DNA of 64,000 nt from Bacteroidota bacterium. GTDB taxonomy: Bacteria > Bacteroidota > Bacteroidia > Bacteroidales > WCHB1-69. The first letter of the stretch is position 1. Each line of letters opens with the position of its first letter. Under the pieces are notes generated by a model. That model was not told the origin of the DNA and ran no database searches. It saw only the letters and a program-made list of their open reading frames with translations. The stretch spans positions 14,523 through 78,522 of the forward strand of contig WQTS01000142.1 of assembly GCA_009786185.1 (NCBI GenBank), read 5' to 3'. Both the position numbers and the translations under genes were made by a program. Positions 41,642 through 54,627 of the stretch are shown here, piece by piece.

Positions 41642-42298
41642 CTATGACTCTTGTCTAATTACACCCAAAACAATAGCTATAGCATATATTTTACTTTTAT
41701 GCAATGGGAAAGGATCATATTTTGGATTATCAGAAACAATAGTTAAAGTATCTTCTGTTTCGCCCTTTTTTATTCGCTTAACCAATGCGCCCTGTTCGGT
41801 ATCCAATACATATACTTTATTCCACTGGAAAAATGTATCCAATGGCAGTTTTTTACACGCAACAATATCACCTGAATTATACTTGGGGTACATAGAAGAT
41901 CCTTTGACGGATATTAGAAATTCGGCTTCTTTAAACACTGGAATAACAAAACGCTCACATTCATGTTCTAAAACTTGTGCACCCCCAGTTCCATAGCCTG
42001 CCATTGCGCTAATGGGAATTAGCGGAATTCCGTCATTTCCATTGGTAGGTACCATATTTTTTGCGGTAATATCATTCCGCAGCATATTGCCGGTACCAGT
42101 AAGTAACCAATCGGATGAAATTTCTCCAAAAACAGATAAAATTTCAGCTATTTGAGTGCCTCCAAATTCGCTTTCTAACGACTTTCCTTTTATATTTGCA
42201 TAAGAAATTCCTGTTTTTTCACAAAACAACTGCTTTGTAATTCCCAAATATTCAATATATTGTAATATTCTCTCTTTGATGGGTGAAATTTTATTCAT
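41642..42298 (-). CDS. Phage repressor (XRE-type HTH plus S24 LexA-like peptidase domain)
   Basis: N-terminal HTH (ILQYIEYLGITKQLFCEKTGISYANI). C-terminus VKGSSMYP...GDIV...VKRI provides the Ser/Lys dyad. Confidence 0.8.
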   Translation of the reverse strand: MNKISPIKERILQYIEYLGITKQLFCEKTGISYANIKGKSLESEFGGTQIAEILSVFGEISSDWLLTGTGNMLRNDITAKNMVPTNGNDGIPLIPISAMAGYGTGGAQVLEHECERFVIPVFKEAEFLISVKGSSMYPKYNSGDIVACKKLPLDTFFQWNKVYVLDTEQGALVKRIKKGETEDTLTIVSDNPKYDPFPLHKSKIYAIAIVLGVIRQES

Positions 42299-42973: not shown

Positions 42974-45040
42974 ATGGTACTGTTCAACTATAACGGAAAT
43001 TTGGCTTTAGAGAGTAGGTGGCTATGGGATAATGGTGTTATTAGCAGGAATAATTACGATATTCGTGTTAATAGAAAGTCTATCACCGTTCTACAACGTT
43101 CCGCTCCCGGCTGTCCCGCCATTATTAGTTACGAATCTCTGCCATATAATATAAAGGATAAAATTAGCACAAAGTTGCAAGAGCTGGGCGAGTTATCGGC
43201 TATTGGTACCAATGCGAATGTACCCATTGAAAAGCAACCCCAACCTTGTTTCTTTGAAAGGTATATAAAACCGGATCCTGCCGCGTTGGAATTTTACGCA
43301 AAATATCCACCGGAAAAAGCGTTGGAATATCACACCAATGCAATTATACTTAACGCATTTCGCGACTTGCTGAGTGAGCGCACGAGTGTTCGCGCTGCAA
43401 AAGGCTCAAGAAGCGTTAAAAGAAGCGGTGTGTTTGCTTCCGTTTTGGGCGATCTTAAATTATTGGACAGAAAAAAGTATCCACACACGCTACCCCTTAG
43501 TGATCGGAACCTAAGGCCCAAGTATCAGGAATATATAAAGGATGGCTACAAATCATTAATACACAAGAATACGGATAATAACTATGCCCGAATAGTAACG
43601 GCTGACATTGAACGGATTTTAATGAGTTTAGCCGTTGCAAGCAATAATCCTTATGCGGAATGGGTTCATGGGCAATATTGCCAATTCTTGTCCGGCGAAA
43701 TTGATGTTGTGGATGTAAAGACAGGCGTACTGTTTAACAGGGAGGAGTTTTGCAATGATAAGGGTGAACCCAGCTACATTAGCGAATCTACCGTATGGAA
43801 TTATCTGAACAATCCCGCGAACAAAGCTGTTATTGATAGTATTAGATTGGGGTACCATCAGTTTGGAGCCTTGGCGCGCCCACACTATCACAGAGAAAAC
43901 GCCCGGTACAGTTTGAGTAAGGTTAGCCTTGATGACAGGGATTTGCCGCGCAAAATGCACGATGGCAACCGCGTAAAAGCATACTATGCCTATGATGTAC
44001 ACAGTGGTGTTCTTATTGGCGCCTGCTATTCAAGAAAAAAAGATACAGATTTGTTTGTAGGCTGTTTGCGCAATATGTTCCGCAATCTTGATGAAATGAA
44101 TTTAGGGCTTCCGCTTGAAATGGAAGTAGAAAACCACCTTGTACGCCAGTTTGAAGATGACTTGCTCAAAGCCGGCAACTTGTTCCCCTTCGTTCGTTGG
44201 TGTGCACCTACCAACTCGCAGGAAAAGCACGCAGAGCAATTTAACAGGCAAAAGAAATACGGATACGAAAAACGCTATCAGGATGGAATAGGCCGCTTTT
44301 ATGCCAAACTTGACGTTAACAGAACCAATGGCGAGCGGGTTTATAACGAAGTAACCGATCGCTACGAAATTAAAACAAAAACATACAGCTACGAGCAGTT
44401 AGTTGCCGACGATCTACTTACGGTAAAAGAATATAACGAGGGTTTGCACCGCGACCAAAAGAAGTATCCGGGCAAAAGCCGCATGCAGGTATTTCTTGAA
44501 AACCTTAACAAAAGTTTGGTGCCAATAAATCGTCCGTTACTACTGCGTTATATCGGGAATTGCACTACCACAAGCGTACAGCGCAACCAATATGTACAGG
44601 TTCAATATGCAGATTACCAATTATCATCACCGGAAGTATTACGCAGGCTAAAACCCGGTAATTATAACGTAAATGCGTACTGGTTATCTAACGCCAAAGG
44701 TGCAATCAGTGAGGTTTATCTCTACCAGGGTGATGAATTTTTATGCAAAGCAGATCAGATAGAAAAGTTTACCACTGCAAAAGCTGAATGGCAGGATGCC
44801 GACAGTACAGCAATGTCGGGCCAGGCACAATATATTACATCATTTGACAAAACAGTAAAGAACGGCAGAGAATCGCTCGCCAAGACGCGAATTTTGCCCA
44901 AAACAAACTACGAAGAAATCATACCGGTAATAGAAGAAGTGGGACCGGTAGCCGAATCTCATTTTGCTTTTGATTTGGACAGGTTAATGGATAAATACCA
45001 AAGTGAAGACTACAAAGAGAGGTGCATTGAAGCAGTTTAA
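42974..45040 (+). CDS. Mu-like DDE transposase (rve/RNase H-fold core)
   Basis: 688 aa. The candidate acidic triad regions are SLDDRDL, AYDVHSG and EMEVENH. It sits directly upstream of a MuB-like ATPase. Family assignment is from context and architecture. Confidence 0.7.
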   Translation: MVLFNYNGNLALESRWLWDNGVISRNNYDIRVNRKSITVLQRSAPGCPAIISYESLPYNIKDKISTKLQELGELSAIGTNANVPIEKQPQPCFFERYIKPDPAALEFYAKYPPEKALEYHTNAIILNAFRDLLSERTSVRAAKGSRSVKRSGVFASVLGDLKLLDRKKYPHTLPLSDRNLRPKYQEYIKDGYKSLIHKNTDNNYARIVTADIERILMSLAVASNNPYAEWVHGQYCQFLSGEIDVVDVKTGVLFNREEFCNDKGEPSYISESTVWNYLNNPANKAVIDSIRLGYHQFGALARPHYHRENARYSLSKVSLDDRDLPRKMHDGNRVKAYYAYDVHSGVLIGACYSRKKDTDLFVGCLRNMFRNLDEMNLGLPLEMEVENHLVRQFEDDLLKAGNLFPFVRWCAPTNSQEKHAEQFNRQKKYGYEKRYQDGIGRFYAKLDVNRTNGERVYNEVTDRYEIKTKTYSYEQLVADDLLTVKEYNEGLHRDQKKYPGKSRMQVFLENLNKSLVPINRPLLLRYIGNCTTTSVQRNQYVQVQYADYQLSSPEVLRRLKPGNYNVNAYWLSNAKGAISEVYLYQGDEFLCKADQIEKFTTAKAEWQDADSTAMSGQAQYITSFDKTVKNGRESLAKTRILPKTNYEEIIPVIEEVGPVAESHFAFDLDRLMDKYQSEDYKERCIEAV

Positions 45041-45073: not shown

Positions 45074-45955
45074 ATGAATTTAAACAAGAACTTAAAAGAA
45101 AAAATTGTAGCGGCGATGATAGAGCGCCGCAGAAACTTTGAAGGCAGTGATGCTAAATTTGCAACTACGTTAGGCATTAGTTCCTCACAGTACAGCCGTA
45201 TTACTAATGGCGAACTGGATAGGGTGATAAGTGATCCCAACTGGATAAGCATTGCCCGGAAACTGGATGTAACGCTTAATAATCTCCCGGAGTGGAAAAC
45301 TGCACGGACACCGGTATATGAATTTGTAACCGGTCAATTGGCTTTTTGCCAAGAAAACGCCGCGAGCCGTATGCTGTGCGATGTAGCGGATATTGGCAAA
45401 ACCTATACTGCAAAGTGCTATGTGAAAGCAAATAAAAACGCTGTTTATATAGACTGCAGCCAGGTAAAGAGCAAACAGAAATTGATTAGAAATATTGCGA
45501 AAGAGTTTGGGGTTGGACATACCGGAACGTATGCCGATGTGTATGCGGATTTGGTGTTTTATCTGCGTTCACTGCCCCAGCCTCTCGTAATACTTGACGA
45601 AGCGGGCGATCTTGACTATGCTGCTTTTTTGGAGCTAAAGGCATTATGGAACGCAACGGAGCGCTGCTGCGGTTGGTACATGATGGGCGCCGATGGATTG
45701 AGAGAAAAGATACGCCGCAGCATAGAGTTTAAAAAAGTAGGTTACGCTGAGTTATTTAGCCGCTATGGCAGCCGTTACCAAAAAGCAAGCCCGGACAGCG
45801 AGCGTGATATGCAGGATTTTAAAACAGTGCACGCTGCCCTGATTATCAAAGCCAATGTTGGGAATGAAGTGGATATACAGAGTTTGATTGCTCGATCTGA
45901 TTTTTCACTACGTAGAATTTACGATGAAGTAAACAAAATAAGCGCAAAGGCATGA
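45074..45955 (+). CDS. MuB-like transposition ATPase (N-terminal HTH plus AAA domain)
   Basis: HTH (FATTLGISSSQYSRITNG), Walker A-like DVADIGKTYTA, and Walker B LVILDEAGD. Confidence 0.7.
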   Translation: MNLNKNLKEKIVAAMIERRRNFEGSDAKFATTLGISSSQYSRITNGELDRVISDPNWISIARKLDVTLNNLPEWKTARTPVYEFVTGQLAFCQENAASRMLCDVADIGKTYTAKCYVKANKNAVYIDCSQVKSKQKLIRNIAKEFGVGHTGTYADVYADLVFYLRSLPQPLVILDEAGDLDYAAFLELKALWNATERCCGWYMMGADGLREKIRRSIEFKKVGYAELFSRYGSRYQKASPDSERDMQDFKTVHAALIIKANVGNEVDIQSLIARSDFSLRRIYDEVNKISAKA

Positions 45956-46583: not shown

Positions 46584-47264
46584 ATGAAACTAAAAAACGA
46601 AAAAGGACAATTTATAAAAGCAGACTGGACACAGGAGGACATGAATATTCTTGTGGAACTATATCCTAATACATTAACCTCAGAAATAGCTAATATATTG
46701 GGCGTAGGGCTTTACCGTGTAAGAAATAAGGCGCATAATTTAGGTTTGAAGAAAAGCGCGGCATTTAAGAGCATGACCGGTAAAATGTCATCAAATAATC
46801 CTAAAACTATTGCAAGCAGATTTAAGAAAGGTAATATTCCCGGAAACAAAGGTAAAAAATATGTTGAATACTTGAGCGCAGAAGCGATTGAGAGATGTAA
46901 AGTTTCGCAATATAAAAAAGGGAATTTGCCTCACAATACAAAAGAAATAGGCTATGAAAGAATAGATAAGGAAGGGTATATTCTTGTTAAAACAGAATTG
47001 CGCGGCAAACTAAAATTGAAACATAGAGAAGTTTGGAAGCAACATTATGGAAATATTCCCAAAGGGCACAATGTGCAATTCAAGGATGGCAACCGCCAAA
47101 ACTGTAACATTGAGAACTTATACATAATACCTCGAAAAGAGCAGGTTGTACAAAACTCTATTCTAAATCTACCTCCGGAAGTACGAACTGCCTATAGAAT
47201 GATTGGAAATATAAAAAAAGAAATTAATAAACAAACGAAAGGAGCAAAAAATGAAACAAATTAG
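46584..47264 (+). CDS. HNH homing-type endonuclease
   Basis: GYILVK...HREVWKQHYGNIPKGHNVQFKDGNRQNCNIENL (HNH_3-like). Confidence 0.6.
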   Translation: MKLKNEKGQFIKADWTQEDMNILVELYPNTLTSEIANILGVGLYRVRNKAHNLGLKKSAAFKSMTGKMSSNNPKTIASRFKKGNIPGNKGKKYVEYLSAEAIERCKVSQYKKGNLPHNTKEIGYERIDKEGYILVKTELRGKLKLKHREVWKQHYGNIPKGHNVQFKDGNRQNCNIENLYIIPRKEQVVQNSILNLPPEVRTAYRMIGNIKKEINKQTKGAKNETN

Positions 47265-48219: not shown

Positions 48220-48429
48220 ATGACATTAGTAGATTATTATCCAAATAGAAGCCGCCTTGATTTCATCGCGTCCGATGGAATGCCTGGCGGTGGTATTAAC
48301 GGAAATCTCGCCCACCTTAAAGCGGCGGAACTTCTAATATCAGGCAATGCCATTGTGCGCTATTGCCTTGACAGTAAAATGAACAATCACAAGATTGACA
48401 AAACTCGTAAAAACAAAGTTAAACCCTAA
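48220..48429 (+). CDS. Hypothetical small phage protein
   Basis: 69-aa ORF in the operon context only. Confidence 0.3.
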   Translation: MTLVDYYPNRSRLDFIASDGMPGGGINGNLAHLKAAELLISGNAIVRYCLDSKMNNHKIDKTRKNKVKP

Positions 48430-48442
48430 AAAGATTAAAGCT

Positions 48443-48955
48443 ATGGCAAAAAGAGAAAAAAAGGTGGTTCACACCGGTGTAACCACAGAGCAAATGGAAA
48501 CAGCATTTGCAGACTACGCACGTTGCGATGCGCGTACTCAAAAAATCAATGCCCAAATGGACATTGAAATAATTAAAATTCGTGAAAAGTACGCCAACGA
48601 ATTAGGCGATTTGGCAGAAGCAAAACAAAAGGCTTTCGACATTCTACAGGTATACGCGACTGAAAATAAGGCGGAACTTTTTACCAAGAAAAAGAGTTTG
48701 GAAACTACGCACGGTGTGTTGGGCTTTAGAACCGGCACGCCAAAACTGAAAACACGAAAGGGTTTCACGTGGGCAGCAGTTACGGAACTATTGAAAGAGT
48801 TTTTACCCGATTATGTGCGCATTACAGAGGAGCCGGCAAAAGATATGCTGCTTTCAGATCGCGATTTGCCCGAAACAAAAGAGCTCTTCCCAAAAGTAGG
48901 AGTTTTCGTGGATCAGGATGAATCATTTTTTGTTGAACCGAAAAAAGAAGAGTAA
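48443..48955 (+). CDS. gam: Mu Gam-like host-nuclease inhibitor
   Basis: The coiled N-terminal region (FADYARCDARTQKINAQMDIEIIKIREKYANELGDL..) and the size fit the Gam family. The track ORF starts at 48395, but the ATG at 48443 (MAKREKK) avoids overlap. Confidence 0.65.
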   Translation: MAKREKKVVHTGVTTEQMETAFADYARCDARTQKINAQMDIEIIKIREKYANELGDLAEAKQKAFDILQVYATENKAELFTKKKSLETTHGVLGFRTGTPKLKTRKGFTWAAVTELLKEFLPDYVRITEEPAKDMLLSDRDLPETKELFPKVGVFVDQDESFFVEPKKEE

Positions 48956-48958
48956 AAT

Positions 48959-49429
48959 ATGAAAACATTACAAATTACCGAACAAACAGCGCGGAAACTA
49001 TACACTATAGCTTCTGCTGAATTTAAAGCAGTTCTTGAGGATACTTTTGGGAAAGATTTCTTCTCAATGAGTATAATGGATAGAATTAGATCCGTTGAGG
49101 ATGCGTGTGCAGAACTTGGTCAAAAGCCCGTTAATGAACCCTTGCTTAGGGATTCAGGTTTTACTGAAGATGAAATTATTTACAGAAAGCTAAAGATCGT
49201 TACCAAAGCCTTAAACGAGAATTGGGAGGCTGACTATGAGGATCCTAACCAAAAGAAGTGGTTCCCTTGGTTTAGCGTGTCTTCGGGCGCTTTCGTTTTC
49301 GGCGATGCGAATTACGCCTACTCGTATGCGAATGCGGGCGGCGCTTCTCGCCTTTGCTTTAAATCTGAGGAGTTGGCAGAATATGCCGGCAAGCAATTTA
49401 TAGAATTGTACAAAAAATTTATTCTTTAA
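48959..49429 (+). CDS. DGR target protein 1 (contains VR1)
   Basis: 156 aa with no signal peptide. Its C-terminal third carries the variable repeat: WFPWFSVSSGAFVFGDANYAYSYANAGGASRLCF. Confidence 0.85.
   Translation: MKTLQITEQTARKLYTIASAEFKAVLEDTFGKDFFSMSIMDRIRSVEDACAELGQKPVNEPLLRDSGFTEDEIIYRKLKIVTKALNENWEADYEDPNQKKWFPWFSVSSGAFVFGDANYAYSYANAGGASRLCFKSEELAEYAGKQFIELYKKFIL
49274..49352 (+). repeat. DGR variable repeat VR1
   Basis: 79 nt, identical to TR 49858-49936 at all 60 non-A positions. It has 10 differences, all at TR adenines. Confidence 0.9.
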
Positions 49430-49464
49430 TATTAACCGCCTTTTAGGCATAAAATCAATTTTTT

Positions 49465-49833
49465 ATGACAAACATTATTGAAAAAGTAAAAACATTTGAA
49501 GATGCGCAAGCATTGACCGGCAGGCCCAATGTTCCTGAATTTTTAGAACTTCCTGAAGATTTAAGAGAGTATTTTAAAGCTCATTACAAAATGGCAGTGA
49601 TTGCCGAAGCTTTAAACGAAGGCCGTAAATTGGATTGGGAAGATCCTAACCAAAAAAAGTGGTTCCCATGGTTTCGCGTGTCTTCGGGCGCTTTCGTTTT
49701 CGACGATACGAATTACTACTACTCGAGTGCGGATGCGGGCGACGCTTCTCGCCTTTGCTTTTCGTCAAGCGAGCTGGCAAGATATGCCGGGGAGCAATTC
49801 ATTGAAATTTGGGAAATAATAATTAAAAAGTAA
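49465..49833 (+). CDS. DGR target protein 2 (paralog of target 1; contains VR2)
   Basis: 122 aa; WFPWFRVSSGAFVFDDTNYYYSSADAGDASRLCF. It shares a conserved frame with target 1 (ALNE, W..DYEDPNQKKW, ELA.YAG.QFIE). Confidence 0.85.
   Translation: MTNIIEKVKTFEDAQALTGRPNVPEFLELPEDLREYFKAHYKMAVIAEALNEGRKLDWEDPNQKKWFPWFRVSSGAFVFDDTNYYYSSADAGDASRLCFSSSELARYAGEQFIEIWEIIIKK
49675..49753 (+). repeat. DGR variable repeat VR2
   Basis: 79 nt, identical to TR at all 60 non-A positions. It has 8 differences, all at TR adenines. Confidence 0.9.
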
Positions 49834-49857: not shown

Positions 49858-49936
49858 AGCGTGTCTTCGGGCGCTTTCGTTTTCAACGATACGAATTACA
49901 ACTACTCGAATGCGAATGCAGGCAACGCTTCTCACC
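49858..49936 (+). repeat. DGR template repeat (TR), non-coding
   Basis: This intergenic copy lies 108 nt upstream of the RT start. It has 19 adenines, mostly in AAC/AAT codons when read in the target frame. The homology ends at a G/T mismatch at 49937. Confidence 0.9.
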
Positions 49937-50044: not shown

Positions 50045-51022
50045 ATGAAAAGGATAAACAACATTTATGACAAAGTATGCGAAATGGATAATCTGTATTT
50101 AGCATATCAAAAAGCGCGTAAAGGCAAAACCAATACTTATGGTGTCCGGCTCTTTGAGCGTGATTTGAATAATAATATGACGCAAATACATTCGGAATTG
50201 ATTTCAGGGCAATACAAAACATCTGAGTACAGCGTGTTCATGATACATGACCCAAAAGAGCGTGTTGTTTACCGCCTTCCCTTCCGGGACAGGATCGTTC
50301 ACCATGCTATTATGAATATTATTGAAGATACGTGGATAAAAATATTTATCTCAAACACATACTCATGTATAAAAGGTCGTGGCATACATGGTGCTTTAAA
50401 GCACTTGAAACGCGATTTAAAAAATGTTTCAACAACTAAATATTGTTTAAAGTTTGATATTAGAAAGTTTTATCCAAGCGTAAATCACGACATATTAAAA
50501 ACCATTATCAGGAAAAAGATAAAAGACGTAAAACTTTTATCGCTTCTTGATGAAATTATTGATTCCGCTCCGGGAGTTCCGATCGGCAATTATCTTTCAC
50601 AGTTTTTTGCTAATTTGTACCTGTCTTATTTTGACCATTGGCTAAAAGAAGAAAAGCGCGTGAAATATTACTATCGCTATGCGGATGATATTGTGATATT
50701 AGGGCACGATAAAGCCTATTTGCACGGGCTTCTTGTAGAAATCAATCATTACCTTGTAAACAACTTAAATCTATATATAAAGGATAACTACCAGGTATTT
50801 CCGGTAGAAGCTCGCGGCATTGATTTTGTGGGCTATGTATTTTATCATTCTCATATTCTAATGAGAAAAACAATTAAAAAGAATTTATGTAGAAAAGCAG
50901 CTGCTCTTAACAAAAAACGTATTCCCATGGATGAATATAAACATCGAATAGCACCACACCTCGGATGGGCTACACATTGCAATTCAAAACATCTTTTAAA
51001 AACCATTATACCACATGAATAA
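50045..51022 (+). CDS. DGR-type reverse transcriptase
   Basis: RT motifs include PIGNYLSQFFANLYL (the I/LGxxxSQ signature of DGR RTs) and YRYADDIVILG (YxDD). 325 aa with no maturase or endonuclease domains. Confidence 0.9.
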   Translation: MKRINNIYDKVCEMDNLYLAYQKARKGKTNTYGVRLFERDLNNNMTQIHSELISGQYKTSEYSVFMIHDPKERVVYRLPFRDRIVHHAIMNIIEDTWIKIFISNTYSCIKGRGIHGALKHLKRDLKNVSTTKYCLKFDIRKFYPSVNHDILKTIIRKKIKDVKLLSLLDEIIDSAPGVPIGNYLSQFFANLYLSYFDHWLKEEKRVKYYYRYADDIVILGHDKAYLHGLLVEINHYLVNNLNLYIKDNYQVFPVEARGIDFVGYVFYHSHILMRKTIKKNLCRKAAALNKKRIPMDEYKHRIAPHLGWATHCNSKHLLKTIIPHE

Positions 51023-51329
51023 ATTCTCTGATCTTGGCATTGAAATTGAAGAAAAAAACATTTACAACGTTACGCAGATAACTGTTGAAGATGTTTTGAA
51101 TTGTGAAATAAGAGTTATTGATTTTCAAGCAAACGTAAAAACGAGGCACGGAGACGGTAGATGTGTATTATTAATTGAATCTGATGGAGTTAAAAAGAAG
51201 TTTTTTACCAATGCAAGCCAATTAAAAGAGGTTTTGGATAAAATACCTAAAGAGAAGTTCCCATTCTCAACAACAATAAAGCAACAACGTTTCGGTAATG
51301 GAAACGGTAAAACATATTATTTCACTTAA
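51015..51329 (+). CDS. Hypothetical protein overlapping the RT stop (candidate DGR accessory)
   Basis: 104 aa with an 8-nt overlap with the RT gene. It looks beta-rich, unlike the helical and basic Avd. Confidence 0.5.
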   Translation: MNKFSDLGIEIEEKNIYNVTQITVEDVLNCEIRVIDFQANVKTRHGDGRCVLLIESDGVKKKFFTNASQLKEVLDKIPKEKFPFSTTIKQQRFGNGNGKTYYFT

Positions 51330-51347
51330 AACGAAATTATTTTAACA

Positions 51348-52172
51348 ATGGAAAATAAACGCATCATTCGTGTGTTTCCTCGAAAAACAAAAGCAACTCC
51401 TGACGATGAGAACGTAAGGATTAATTGCAAACCTGTGATGTTTGATAGAGCTGATGAAGTACATATATCTGTTACATTCACATGGGATTTAAAGCGCGCC
51501 GAATATTTGTATAATCAATGGCGATGGGCAGGATTTAACACAAAGATAGGCGGTGTTGCATTTGGACAACCAAGCGGAGAGTTTGTGCCTGGATTGTATC
51601 TAAAAAAAGGATATGTGATTACTTCGCGCGGCTGCCCGAATAAATGTTGGTTCTGTAATGTTCATAAAGTACAAGGCGATTTAATAGAATTGCCGATTGT
51701 TGAAGGCTATATTATTCAGGATGACAACTTACTTGCATGTTCTGAACATCATATAAACGCCGTTTTTGAAATGCTCAAGAGACAAAAAGAGCGACCGGTT
51801 TTTGCAGGTGGCTTGGAAGCAAAACTGTTAACGCAAGAAATGGCCTTTCGGTTGAAAGAACTTAATCCAGCTTCACTGTTTTTTGCCTATGACACAAAGG
51901 ACGATTACGAGCCGCTTATACAAGCAGGAAAATATCTAACAGAAGCAGGATTTAAAAAGAATGATATTGTGAGATGTTACGTATTAATCGGCTATCAAGG
52001 CGATACTTTTGAAAAAGCTGAAAAGCGTTTGCGTGAAGCGTGGGCTGCAGGCTTTTTTCCTTTTGCAATGCTTTATAGAGATGAAAAGGGTTGTATGGAA
52101 AAAGAATGGAGGCAATTTCAGAGACTTTATGCAAATTCATATATTACAGGCTCAATTTTACGAAAAAAATAA
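51348..52172 (+). CDS. Radical SAM-like protein (phage-encoded)
   Basis: SRGCPNKCWFCNV is a CxxxCxxC cluster motif, followed by an alpha/beta-like region. No closer assignment is possible by eye. Confidence 0.55.
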   Translation: MENKRIIRVFPRKTKATPDDENVRINCKPVMFDRADEVHISVTFTWDLKRAEYLYNQWRWAGFNTKIGGVAFGQPSGEFVPGLYLKKGYVITSRGCPNKCWFCNVHKVQGDLIELPIVEGYIIQDDNLLACSEHHINAVFEMLKRQKERPVFAGGLEAKLLTQEMAFRLKELNPASLFFAYDTKDDYEPLIQAGKYLTEAGFKKNDIVRCYVLIGYQGDTFEKAEKRLREAWAAGFFPFAMLYRDEKGCMEKEWRQFQRLYANSYITGSILRKK

Positions 52173-52180
52173 AACAAACA

Positions 52181-52465
52181 ATGAAAGTCTATATTGCCGG
52201 TAAAGTAACAGGATTAAACCTTGCGGACGCTTTTGTGAAGTTCGGTACAGCGGAATTTCAACTGAAGCAAGCCGGGTATGATGTTGTTAACCCGATGCGG
52301 ATCTGCTCTCAAAGTTGGAGTTGGGAAAAGTGTATGAAGGCATGTATAATGGGGCTGGTGCAATGCGATGCCATTTACCTGCTTCCGGATTGGAAAGAAA
52401 GTGAGGGAGCGAGATTAGAATATTACATTGCGAAAAAACTTAAACTAAAAATAATAACATTATGA
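52181..52465 (+). CDS. DUF4406 (nucleoside 2-deoxyribosyltransferase-like) protein
   Basis: MKVYIAGKVTG...VVNP...CDAIYLLPDWKESEGARLEYYIAKKL. The track ORF starts at 52091, but the ATG at 52181 fits the family N-terminus. Confidence 0.6.
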   Translation: MKVYIAGKVTGLNLADAFVKFGTAEFQLKQAGYDVVNPMRICSQSWSWEKCMKACIMGLVQCDAIYLLPDWKESEGARLEYYIAKKLKLKIITL

Positions 52466-53620: not shown

Positions 53621-54121
53621 ATGTGGATTATAATAGTAATAGCATTGATTATTGTAGCATTTTGTTATTTCATGTATGTTACAAGTAAAAAAAACAAAGA
53701 AAAATTAAGAGAAAAAGGATTCAACCCCGATGGCTTAGTGCTAAATGTTAAATATATGTGCGGGCATCCTGACTTAAATGAACCCGTAACAACCCATTTG
53801 GGATTAAAAGATGGAGGTATTTATCTTGTACAAAATTTTGGAGTAGAATTGGCCACTATTCCCGAAAACAAAATTAAAAATATTTATGTTGAAGATTCAA
53901 CAACCATACAGCACCGTCCCACTGTAGTGCGTTTTTTAGCATTGGGATTATTAGCGTTTGCATGGCAAAAGAAAAAGAAAGATGAACAAGCTTATTTAGG
54001 AATAGAGTGGAATGATGGTCGTTTTGACCATGATACTATTTTTGAGTTTGAAGGTGTGGACTCAGTAATGCGTGCAAATACTGCTCGCAATAAATTAATT
54101 CAACAGATTAGGAAACAATAA
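53621..54121 (+). CDS. Phage membrane protein (single N-terminal TM)
   Basis: MWIIIVIALIIVAFCYFMYV forms a TM helix. The track ORF starts at a TTG at 53591. Confidence 0.45.
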   Translation: MWIIIVIALIIVAFCYFMYVTSKKNKEKLREKGFNPDGLVLNVKYMCGHPDLNEPVTTHLGLKDGGIYLVQNFGVELATIPENKIKNIYVEDSTTIQHRPTVVRFLALGLLAFAWQKKKKDEQAYLGIEWNDGRFDHDTIFEFEGVDSVMRANTARNKLIQQIRKQ

Positions 54122-54123
54122 AA

Positions 54124-54150
54124 AAGCCCCAAGTCGGGGCTTTTTTATTT
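54124..54150. terminator. Bidirectional rho-independent terminator between convergent phage modules
   Basis: AAAAAGCCCC-AAGTC-GGGGCTTTTTT. Confidence 0.75.
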
Positions 54151-54153
54151 ATT

Positions 54154-54627
54154 TTATTCAATTTCTACTATGATTTTCGGCGTTACCTGTACGGGAATTG
54201 TATTTGTTTTTTTATGCTCGCGCCAACCGGATACATAGACTACCCTGTATATTTCATAACCAGCAGCGGCATCTATTTTTTTTAGTTTTACGCGAATTAA
54301 CGGTTGAAGCTCTCCATTGGTATAGCCGTGTAAACTGTCGTGTATTTTATTAACAATATCAAAAATAGCGTAGGAATCCTCTTTGCGTGGTGCTTTGTGG
54401 GAACTACGTGTATTTTTAGCATTGGCAATAGTAATTTCAATCGCTCCATCTGCGTCTTGTGCCAACATGCCTAATTGTCCGTAATCCACTTCAGCAATAT
54501 CTAACAGCGCACAGGGGAACTTAACTGGTGGCTGCTCATACAGTAGCTGCCCCCAGTTCTTGTCAATGTGCTTTAGCTCCGGTATTTTGGATAGCTCTCC
54601 TTGAATAGATAGAAAAATGTCTTTCAT
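54154..54627 (-). CDS. Phage structural/neck-type hypothetical protein
   Basis: 157-aa ORF at the end of the leftward head-morphogenesis block. Confidence 0.4.
   Translation of the reverse strand: MKDIFLSIQGELSKIPELKHIDKNWGQLLYEQPPVKFPCALLDIAEVDYGQLGMLAQDADGAIEITIANAKNTRSSHKAPRKEDSYAIFDIVNKIHDSLHGYTNGELQPLIRVKLKKIDAAAGYEIYRVVYVSGWREHKKTNTIPVQVTPKIIVEIE

Follow-up and report, generated by a model that had tools for sequence, protein, structure and literature searches.

Tandem PHROG 11581-family proteins as targets of a diversity-generating retroelement in the early gene array of a Mu-like Bacteroidota prophage

The diversity-generating retroelements (DGRs) of phages have so far been explained almost entirely by tropism switching of tail fibres and by the fold that C-type lectins have. 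The locus described here raises the question of what a phage DGR diversifies when its targets are small proteins encoded among the early genes. It lies in a stretch of 64,000 nucleotides from a Bacteroidota genome (contig WQTS01000142.1 of assembly GCA_009786185.1), which is referred to below as the window and whose numbering is used throughout. The window carries an active-type DGR in the early, transposition-side gene array of a Mu-like prophage. The cassette comprises two tandem target genes (T1 and T2), a template repeat (TR), a reverse transcriptase (RT) gene and a small open reading frame (ORF), orf104. A first-pass annotation, made from the letters alone, had described T1 and T2 as paralogous DGR targets of 156 and 122 aa situated between gam and the RT gene, and as something other than Mtd-like tail fibres. 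This description is borne out by the analysis. Both ORFs are confirmed, their products are 52% identical, Gam is recognised by PF07352 and phrog_491 and the RT by RVT_1 and phrog_1423, and the targets are small proteins in the early operon of a transposable phage.

The core evidence is the relationship between the TR and the variable repeats (VRs) of the two targets. A 24-nt seed occurs in exactly three copies in the window, at 49277, 49678 and 49861, that is, in VR1, VR2 and the TR. Aligned with the TR over the cores, VR1 shows 9 differences and VR2 shows 7; all of them fall on TR adenines, as expected for the independent VR states from one TR that the first-pass annotation had proposed. The residue differences listed there for the two VRs are also correct, the S/R pair corresponding to codon 106 and to the first adenine of the TR (49858). 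When every A in a 58-nt TR pattern is replaced by N, the pattern matches VR1, VR2 and the TR alone in the window, with 0 matches in 100 shuffles. A search of the window for a remote VR with the A-masked TR revealed none beyond VR1 and VR2, and a metagenome scan for remote VRs of this prophage returned nothing. The TR contains 18 adenines, and six of its codons are of the AAY type, so that some 11 codons can be rewritten in each gene, which corresponds to roughly 1e9-1e10 proteins.

Beyond the cores, an extra A-to-G difference is found at TR position 49934 (CAC versus CGC), which corresponds to 49350 in VR1 and 49751 in VR2 and is the start of the 3' divergence between VR and TR (VR ...CTCGCCTTTGCTTT versus TR ...CTCACCGATGCTAAAA). 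Here the TR specifies His, where both VRs and all 34 aligned family members keep an invariant Arg131. From this pattern, the site appears to be the 3' limit of information transfer, not a mutagenised position. It is also the place where the pair of initiation of mutagenic homing elements (IMH/IMH*) is expected, and the 3' segment of VR1 is a candidate IMH by analogy with the BPP-1 paradigm.

The RT ORF and all other ORFs of the cassette are intact, and the catalytic motifs of the RT are present; IGNYLSQ and YADD in its translation fit the DGR pattern [LIV]GxxxSQ and YxDD. A defence-associated RT, a retron and a group II intron were considered and rejected. The protein scores best on a generic RT model, below all curated cut-offs, including those of the retron, Drt and group II models, and it is assigned to a DGR because the TR/VR anatomy settles its identity. 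Like the BPP-1 system, the cassette combines an RT, a TR and a VR with adenine-specific mutagenesis, AAY codons and a VR 3' segment unlike that of the TR. However, the BPP-1 target, Mtd, is a trimeric tail-fibre tip of 381 aa whose C-terminal domain has a lectin fold and which bears its VR at the extreme C-terminus. Moreover, BPP-1 has Avd, whereas none is detectable here and orf104 follows the RT. Unlike in BPP-1, no conserved DNA hairpin was found after the VR. A candidate target-recognition hairpin (GGCA..TGCC in the LAEYAG codons) was rejected; it folds no better than shuffles (z -1.1, -1.7), and the synonymous third positions of its Ala and Tyr codons show no covariation in 69 distinct sequences.

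The targets are placed in the early, transposition-side block because the repressor faces a plus-strand array containing the transposase and Gam, with converging head genes past a terminator. This array contains, in order, the transposase, the MuB-like protein, an ATPase, the HNH protein, several small ORFs, Gam, T1, T2, the TR, the RT and orf104 (Table 1). The Mu-like marker set is thus present (repressor, MuA-type transposase, MuB-type ATPase, Gam, then head genes), and a 331-aa protein additionally gives a faint match to Mu-like_Pro_N, a Mu-like protease marker. About 4.3 kb downstream of the targets, the first strong terminator-like element on the plus strand is a hairpin that, from its sequence, looks like a bidirectional terminator common to the converging early (plus) and late (minus) operons. 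The neck, minor head, portal, adaptor and terminase genes begin on the minus strand at 54154. The earlier statement that the targets lie far from the tail genes has to be qualified: the window contains no tail gene, and what is found beyond the hairpin, on the other strand, is the head genes. The two target proteins are entered as MCL2291204.1 and MCL2291205.1 (FWC34_10990 and FWC34_10995) in an NCBI metagenome-assembled Bacteroidota genome. No near-identical phage was found in GenBank, and the prophage is not a hankyphage.

Table 1. Positions of the DGR cassette and of the surrounding prophage features in the window
Feature	Position	Strand	Basis and remarks
CI-like S24 repressor	41642-42298	-	Divergent from the early operon; Peptidase_S24 2e-14; phrog_4, phrog_6201
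Mu-type transposase (MuA-like)	42974-45040	+	phrog_310 2.8e-44
MuB-like DNA transposition ATPase	45074-45955	+	phrog_296 4e-36; AAA_22 and HTH_3
HNH endonuclease	46584-47264	+	HNH_3, phrog_1891; early transposition operon, ATPase on its 5' side and Gam on its 3' side
Mu Gam-like end-protection protein	48395-48955	+	PF07352 5.9e-36; phrog_491; T1 starts 3 nt on
Target 1 (T1) ORF	48959-49429	+	156 aa; variable protein of the PHROG 11581 family
VR1 core	49274-49349	+	Codons 106-130 and first base of codon 131 of T1
VR1 3' end, candidate IMH	49350-49364	+	VR GCCTTTGCTTT versus TR ACCGATGCTAAAA; VR/TR divergence
Target 2 (T2) ORF	49465-49833	+	122 aa; T1 paralog without the N-terminal ~35 residues
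VR2 core	49675-49750	+	In T2
TR core	49858-49933	+	Non-coding; 18 adenines, six AAY codons
DGR reverse transcriptase	50045-51022	+	RVT_1 1.9e-17; phrog_1423 1e-122; IGNYLSQ, YADD
orf104	51015-51329	+	104 aa; overlaps the RT stop; 3' of the RT in most related loci
Terminator-like hairpin	54117-54149	both	14-pair GC-containing stem, A-runs/T-runs at the flanks; strong

Both targets belong to PHROG 11581 (T1, 1e-31; T2, 1.6e-19), a family to which no function is assigned in PHROG. It is their sole PHROG match, no structural PHROG being hit, and neither protein matches Pfam, NCBIfam or PADLOC. In the family alignment, a conserved scaffold (ALNEGW, WFPWF, SRLCF, LAxYAGxQF) surrounds the hypervariable stretch. 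The conserved segment that had been noticed after the VR is real and comprises 22 residues, with A143, G144 and F147 invariant in 34 sequences. A word-indexed search yields 496 relatives. In a library clustered at 50% identity, a profile search returns 4,321 representatives when the cut-off is E <= 0.001 and 2,795 when it is E <= 1e-10. The proposed survey of related Mu-like loci shows that the arrangement recurs: about 70 of 80 IMG/VR loci contain one to four tandem targets, the TR, the RT and orf104 in that order, in most cases downstream of MuA, MuB and two other early genes. Among 80 loci from GTDB genomes, an RT next to the target together with an A-biased TR is seen in 44 and a TR without an RT in 6, while in 28 both are absent within 7 kb. 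In these genomes the family is almost wholly confined to Bacteroidota, where it occurs in all classes and many habitats.

The behaviour of the VRs across the family points to mutagenesis of the same kind. Of the 976 mismatches counted between 34 distinct TRs and 66 VRs, 837 lie at TR adenines; most of the non-adenine mismatches in this pooled count are present because the TR search was ungapped and, in some divergent loci (L027, L065, L073-L076, L079, L080), failed to find the TR or placed it wrongly. Two sister phage contigs, L010 and L011, share the same sequence over 5,001 bp save for 6 sites, all in VR2, a difference that would represent recent DGR activity in the sister phage. At AAY positions, Tyr makes up 24% of the residues in 73 distinct VRs, against 6% expected from the base spectrum, and this excess fits selection for a binding surface. 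Two near-complete Mu-like contigs, of 41.3 and 38.3 kb, contain no further match to the A-masked TR beyond the clustered VRs and the TR itself, and two half-length patterns likewise detect no other VR on the 41.3-kb contig. Because both contigs show clustered VRs only, the DGR of this Mu-like lineage appears to be dedicated to PHROG 11581.

Several further observations concern the composition of the family. Members of about 300 aa (P0121, P0123 and P0125; 277-305 aa) are fusions of two tandem paralogs, each with two matched stretches. In one sub-lineage, a third member of about 195 aa lies about 6.5 kb downstream of the cassette (L073 14937-15521, L074 7822-8406, L076 9111-9695), and its VR region is like VR1. 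Members are also present on contigs binned as Bacillota (Christensenella, Ruminococcus, Eubacteriales, Borkfalkiaceae), with single ones in Ignavibacteria and Nitrospiraceae (L125, L129, L130, L143, L153, L161 and L162). These are either mis-binned phage contigs or signs of a wider host range.

A non-structural, conflict-related target of a phage DGR is not a new idea, since such targets have already been reported in two studies. In Quimbyvirus, a distal, non-structural second target was described as C-type-lectin-containing, and a role in phage-host conflict was suggested (Benler 2021, PMC8008677). More recently, four prophage species were reported to have a second VR near counter-defence genes (Nature 2025, PMC12629997). 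The phage BI-TP1 appears to derive from the latter study. As this study cites Benler 2021 for LoVEphage, Quimbyvirus and LoVEphage may be the same or close. A tblastn search of GenBank phages finds distant homologs in LoVEphage records, BI-TP1, PV4-TP1, BT-TP2, Dulem virus 41 and Versailles.

The homolog in BI-TP1, a LoVEphage-like Bacteroides phage (PQ571265.1), is gp84, a 194-aa protein distantly related to the targets across the whole scaffold and encoded in a neighbourhood of genes for methyltransferases, radical SAM, PAPS reductase and tRNA ligase. Its VR matches, with differences at TR adenines, a TR that lies at a distance of 56 kb, with the RT on one side and an Mtd_N-type tail protein on the other. 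The C-terminus of this tail protein is a second VR of the same TR, and the similarity between the tail protein and gp84 is confined to the VR; the positions concerned are L081 6001-6585 and L083 6542-6648 and 6822-6935. In the Bacteroides phage Versailles (ON453897.1), the homolog lies between NinB/Orf and a replisome organiser. It is again a remote VR, with 14 differences, all at adenines, from a TR beside the tail protein and the RT; the positions concerned are L085 7860-8441 and L086 35631-35939. In BT-TP2, the homolog directly follows cro-like regulators. In both BI-TP1 and Versailles, the TR that serves the family member has its structural target in a tail protein encoded elsewhere, so that PHROG 11581 forms a second, distinct class of target. 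In GenBank, the Versailles homolog is labelled 'tail protein'; judging from the sequence comparison, this annotation was probably prompted by a resemblance that does not extend beyond the VR.

As a non-structural DGR target, gp84 resembles the Quimbyvirus/LoVEphage type, and its neighbourhood matches the description in Benler 2021. Together with this context, the BI-TP1 case suggests by analogy that the Quimbyvirus distal target belongs to the PHROG 11581 family. The prophage of the window nevertheless differs in several respects. BI-TP1 has a single remote copy, 56 kb from the RT, and its TR is shared with a tail protein, whereas here two copies (one to four elsewhere) adjoin the RT in tandem and appear to be the only targets. 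T1 and T2 are of a short form, with a 26-aa VR that does not have the insertion of about 30 residues seen in the long form of the BI-TP1 type, and their host phage is Mu-like instead of integrase-type. In the Quimbyvirus and LoVEphage papers, the family is not defined and the domain is called a C-type lectin. Three points were not found in the literature: that the distal targets and the tandem targets of Mu-like phages form one large family, PHROG 11581; that some phages use their DGR solely for this family; and that the family has no detectable lectin fold.

Other known systems are less similar. Hankyphage is, like the element studied here, a Mu-like transposable prophage with an active DGR, found in Bacteroides (Benler 2018, PMC6199706; PLoS Biol 2025, PMC12135933), but there the DGR acts on a putative tail fibre and Avd is present (PMC12135933). 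Neither T1 nor a long-form member, when used to search the phage collection, retrieved a record with hankyphage in its name. In the tentaclin/tgt2 phage DGRs, one TR likewise serves two target genes, and the VR forms a surface beta-hairpin (PMC10743442).

The predicted structures address the question of fold. The AlphaFold2 model of T1 (predicted local distance difference test, pLDDT, 88.7; predicted template modelling score, pTM, 0.81) consists of helices at 8-85, a beta-hairpin at 100-120, a low-confidence loop at 121-133 and two C-terminal helices. That of T2 (pLDDT 82.4, pTM 0.77) has an ill-defined VR region. In the T1 model, the randomised codons would fall on the second strand of the hairpin and on the loop after it. 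The variable part is predicted to be held between a helical N-terminal part (ALNEGW...WFPWF) and the two conserved C-terminal helices (SRLCF...LAxYAGxQF). A Foldseek search of the PDB gives no match at E <= 0.001 for the T1 model and none at E <= 10 for the T2 model. Against BFVD, the only matches of the T1 model are proteins from gut phages, crAss-like and others, all of them uncharacterised. Profile searches of PDB sequences, with the family profile and with the Versailles homolog, return noise only, and a tail-protein positive control finds no lectin structure either. Consequently, the PDB sequence searches have no power on the question of fold. No lectin-fold domain with the VR at its C-terminus was found in T1 or T2 by the Foldseek search of the PDB, and helices follow the VR in the models. 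Mtd-like N-terminal domains for tail attachment and a position in a tail module were likewise not found in these proteins of 122-156 aa, which have no Pfam domain. A length of 122 aa is below the size of a C-type-lectin domain. On these models, the family is not detectably lectin-like.

The suggestion that the targets are not C-type lectins, and the structure prediction proposed as a check on it, are thus upheld as far as the absence of a lectin-like PDB match is concerned. They are weakened by the low confidence of the modelled VR, by the lectin-like appearance of the long-form VR and by the label used in Benler 2021. The fold could instead be a strongly reduced or rearranged C-type-lectin variant and not a new one, a serious possibility, although it falls short of an even chance. 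In long-form members, the VR is templated by the same TR as the C-terminal VR of a tail protein and resembles lectin-type VRs in sequence (LWGG...IGSRLA; ...LGFRLC). By its context, the Quimbyvirus distal target annotated as C-type-lectin-containing (Benler 2021, PMC8008677) appears to be a member of this family. The hairpin of the T1 model has counterparts among other lectin-type targets, in which a VR beta-hairpin is known (PMC10743442), and uncharacterised VR domains are in general expected to be lectin variants (Roux 2021, PMC8144416). Such a variant would, however, have to fit a domain of about 90-120 residues with two conserved helices after the VR in place of the terminal strand, and it would have to have escaped the Foldseek search with both models, as well as the PDB-sequence profile search, the latter being without power.

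With regard to function, it is held with middling confidence that the T1/T2 family is an intracellular, early-acting variable binder in phage-host conflict. This reading is favoured because four or more unrelated types of phage carry the genes in modules for early functions, recombination, replication or DNA modification, because a separate tail target exists where a tail target is present, and because no structural family is matched. In the mechanism envisaged, the RT would copy TR RNA with errors at the adenines, and the complementary DNA would overwrite the matching 76-nt segment in each of the tandem paralogs, directionality presumably being provided by the 3' segment in which VR and TR differ. 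The small, acidic proteins (pI ~5) would be made early inside the infected or induced cell. As variable binders and not as receptor-binding proteins of the virion, they may neutralise or recognise variable host proteins, such as defence factors, or take over host functions. The anti-defence or host-takeover role is suggested by gene neighbourhood only. In a wider form, the family would constitute a repertoire of small intracellular binders for adaptive counter-immunity, diversified by the retroelement, expressed alongside the early genes and selected to neutralise whatever variable defence or host proteins the phage encounters. The DGR of the Mu-like lineage would be devoted solely to this repertoire, which would be built on a second, non-lectin scaffold; in this full extent the proposal is doubtful.

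Several points weigh against an intracellular, early-acting binder. T1 and T2 contain no hydrophobic segment (maximum 19-residue Kyte-Doolittle value 0.58), in agreement with the earlier report of no signal peptide or transmembrane segment. However, this does not discriminate between the readings, because phage tail proteins likewise have no signal peptide, and the observation is compatible with a virion role. The VR is modelled at low confidence (pLDDT 57 in T1 and 44 in T2). Early timing is read from operon position and is circumstantial; the scan does not cover Bacteroidota promoters. Because the window does not reach the prophage's tail module, a remote tail VR is excluded here only by analogy with related contigs. 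Finally, the shared TR in BI-TP1 and Versailles could mean that both of its targets bind the same kind of ligand, possibly a surface ligand.

This last point leads to the view that T1 and T2 are virion-associated or released adhesins, that is, accessory modules for binding receptors, mucus or glycans that dock through the conserved helical part, in which case the element would be an ordinary host-range DGR whose targets are unusually placed. One TR does diversify both a tail protein and a family member in BI-TP1 and Versailles, the long-form VRs look like lectin-type VRs, Tyr-rich variable sites are typical of receptor binders, and tandem copies could provide alternative specificities. The 'tail protein' label of the Versailles homolog would also belong here, but it probably stems from the VR-limited similarity. 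What makes the adhesin unlikely is its genomic context. In five phage contexts, annotated or surveyed and including Dulem virus 41, the genes are found in early, replication or DNA-modification surroundings and never beside structural genes; in the window, the terminator parts the target array from the head genes. Besides, phrog_11581 is the only PHROG matched, and it is not a structural one.

The proteins could also protect the lysogen through superinfection exclusion, as variable sensors or blockers of phages or mobile elements that enter the cell. The elements are temperate, members of the family occur widely as prophage genes in bacterial genomes, and DGR-diversified intracellular sensors are known in multicellular bacteria (PMC10907252). 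Cyanobacterial and other multicellular-bacterial conflict and signalling proteins (PMC7517822, PMC10907252) provide a precedent for DGR targets at work inside the cell in conflict systems. However, those proteins are cellular, large and multidomain, combining effector modules with VR domains of lectin type, whereas T1 and T2 are phage proteins of only 122-156 aa, with no effector domain and no PADLOC match. Furthermore, their genes are co-directional with the transposase in a repressor-controlled, lytic-side array. Protection of the lysogen is accordingly considered quite improbable. Very little credence can be given to the cassette being an inactive relic with old VR/TR differences: although the exact target proteins occur on 4 contigs without variants, all ORFs are intact, including an RT with catalytic motifs, the differences are exclusively at adenines, VR1 and VR2 differ from one another, and the sister pair L010/L011 differs inside the VR alone.

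The remaining genes of the array concern the possible accessory component of the DGR and the functional surroundings of the targets. Avd, a four-helix bundle (PF05635) that is common but not universal in DGRs, has no match among the scanned ORFs of the array. The protein that stands where Avd would be expected, orf104, has no match in Pfam, NCBIfam or PADLOC. Among its homologs is the C-terminal part of BI-TP1 gp9 (2.6e-19; L083 4713-5297, minus strand). Its counterpart in BT-TP2 is fused to the C-terminus of a 431-aa RT (L084 3005-4300), and that in Versailles is a 126-aa ORF after the RT (L086 37658-38038). orf104 may thus be a non-Avd accessory domain of this DGR clade. After orf104 come genes for a radical-SAM protein (phrog_9298) and a DUF4406 protein resembling nucleoside 2-deoxyribosyltransferases (51348-52465, plus strand), followed by more small ORFs. 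The two genes could form a module for DNA modification or anti-restriction. In BI-TP1, too, the family member has radical SAM and DNA-modification genes on its flanks, and in Versailles such genes are found in its vicinity.

The same family also supplies the unexplained 'second target' of the highly prevalent LoVEphage-type phages of the gut. Once these targets are seen as a single family, which comprises over 4,000 clusters at 50% identity across Bacteroidota, what used to be scattered remarks becomes a testable question, namely what a phage gains from hypermutating an intracellular protein. If the target of these binders is host defence, the family would represent a diversifying anti-defence mechanism. 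If the fold is truly non-lectin, it would provide a new scaffold for protein diversification and engineering.

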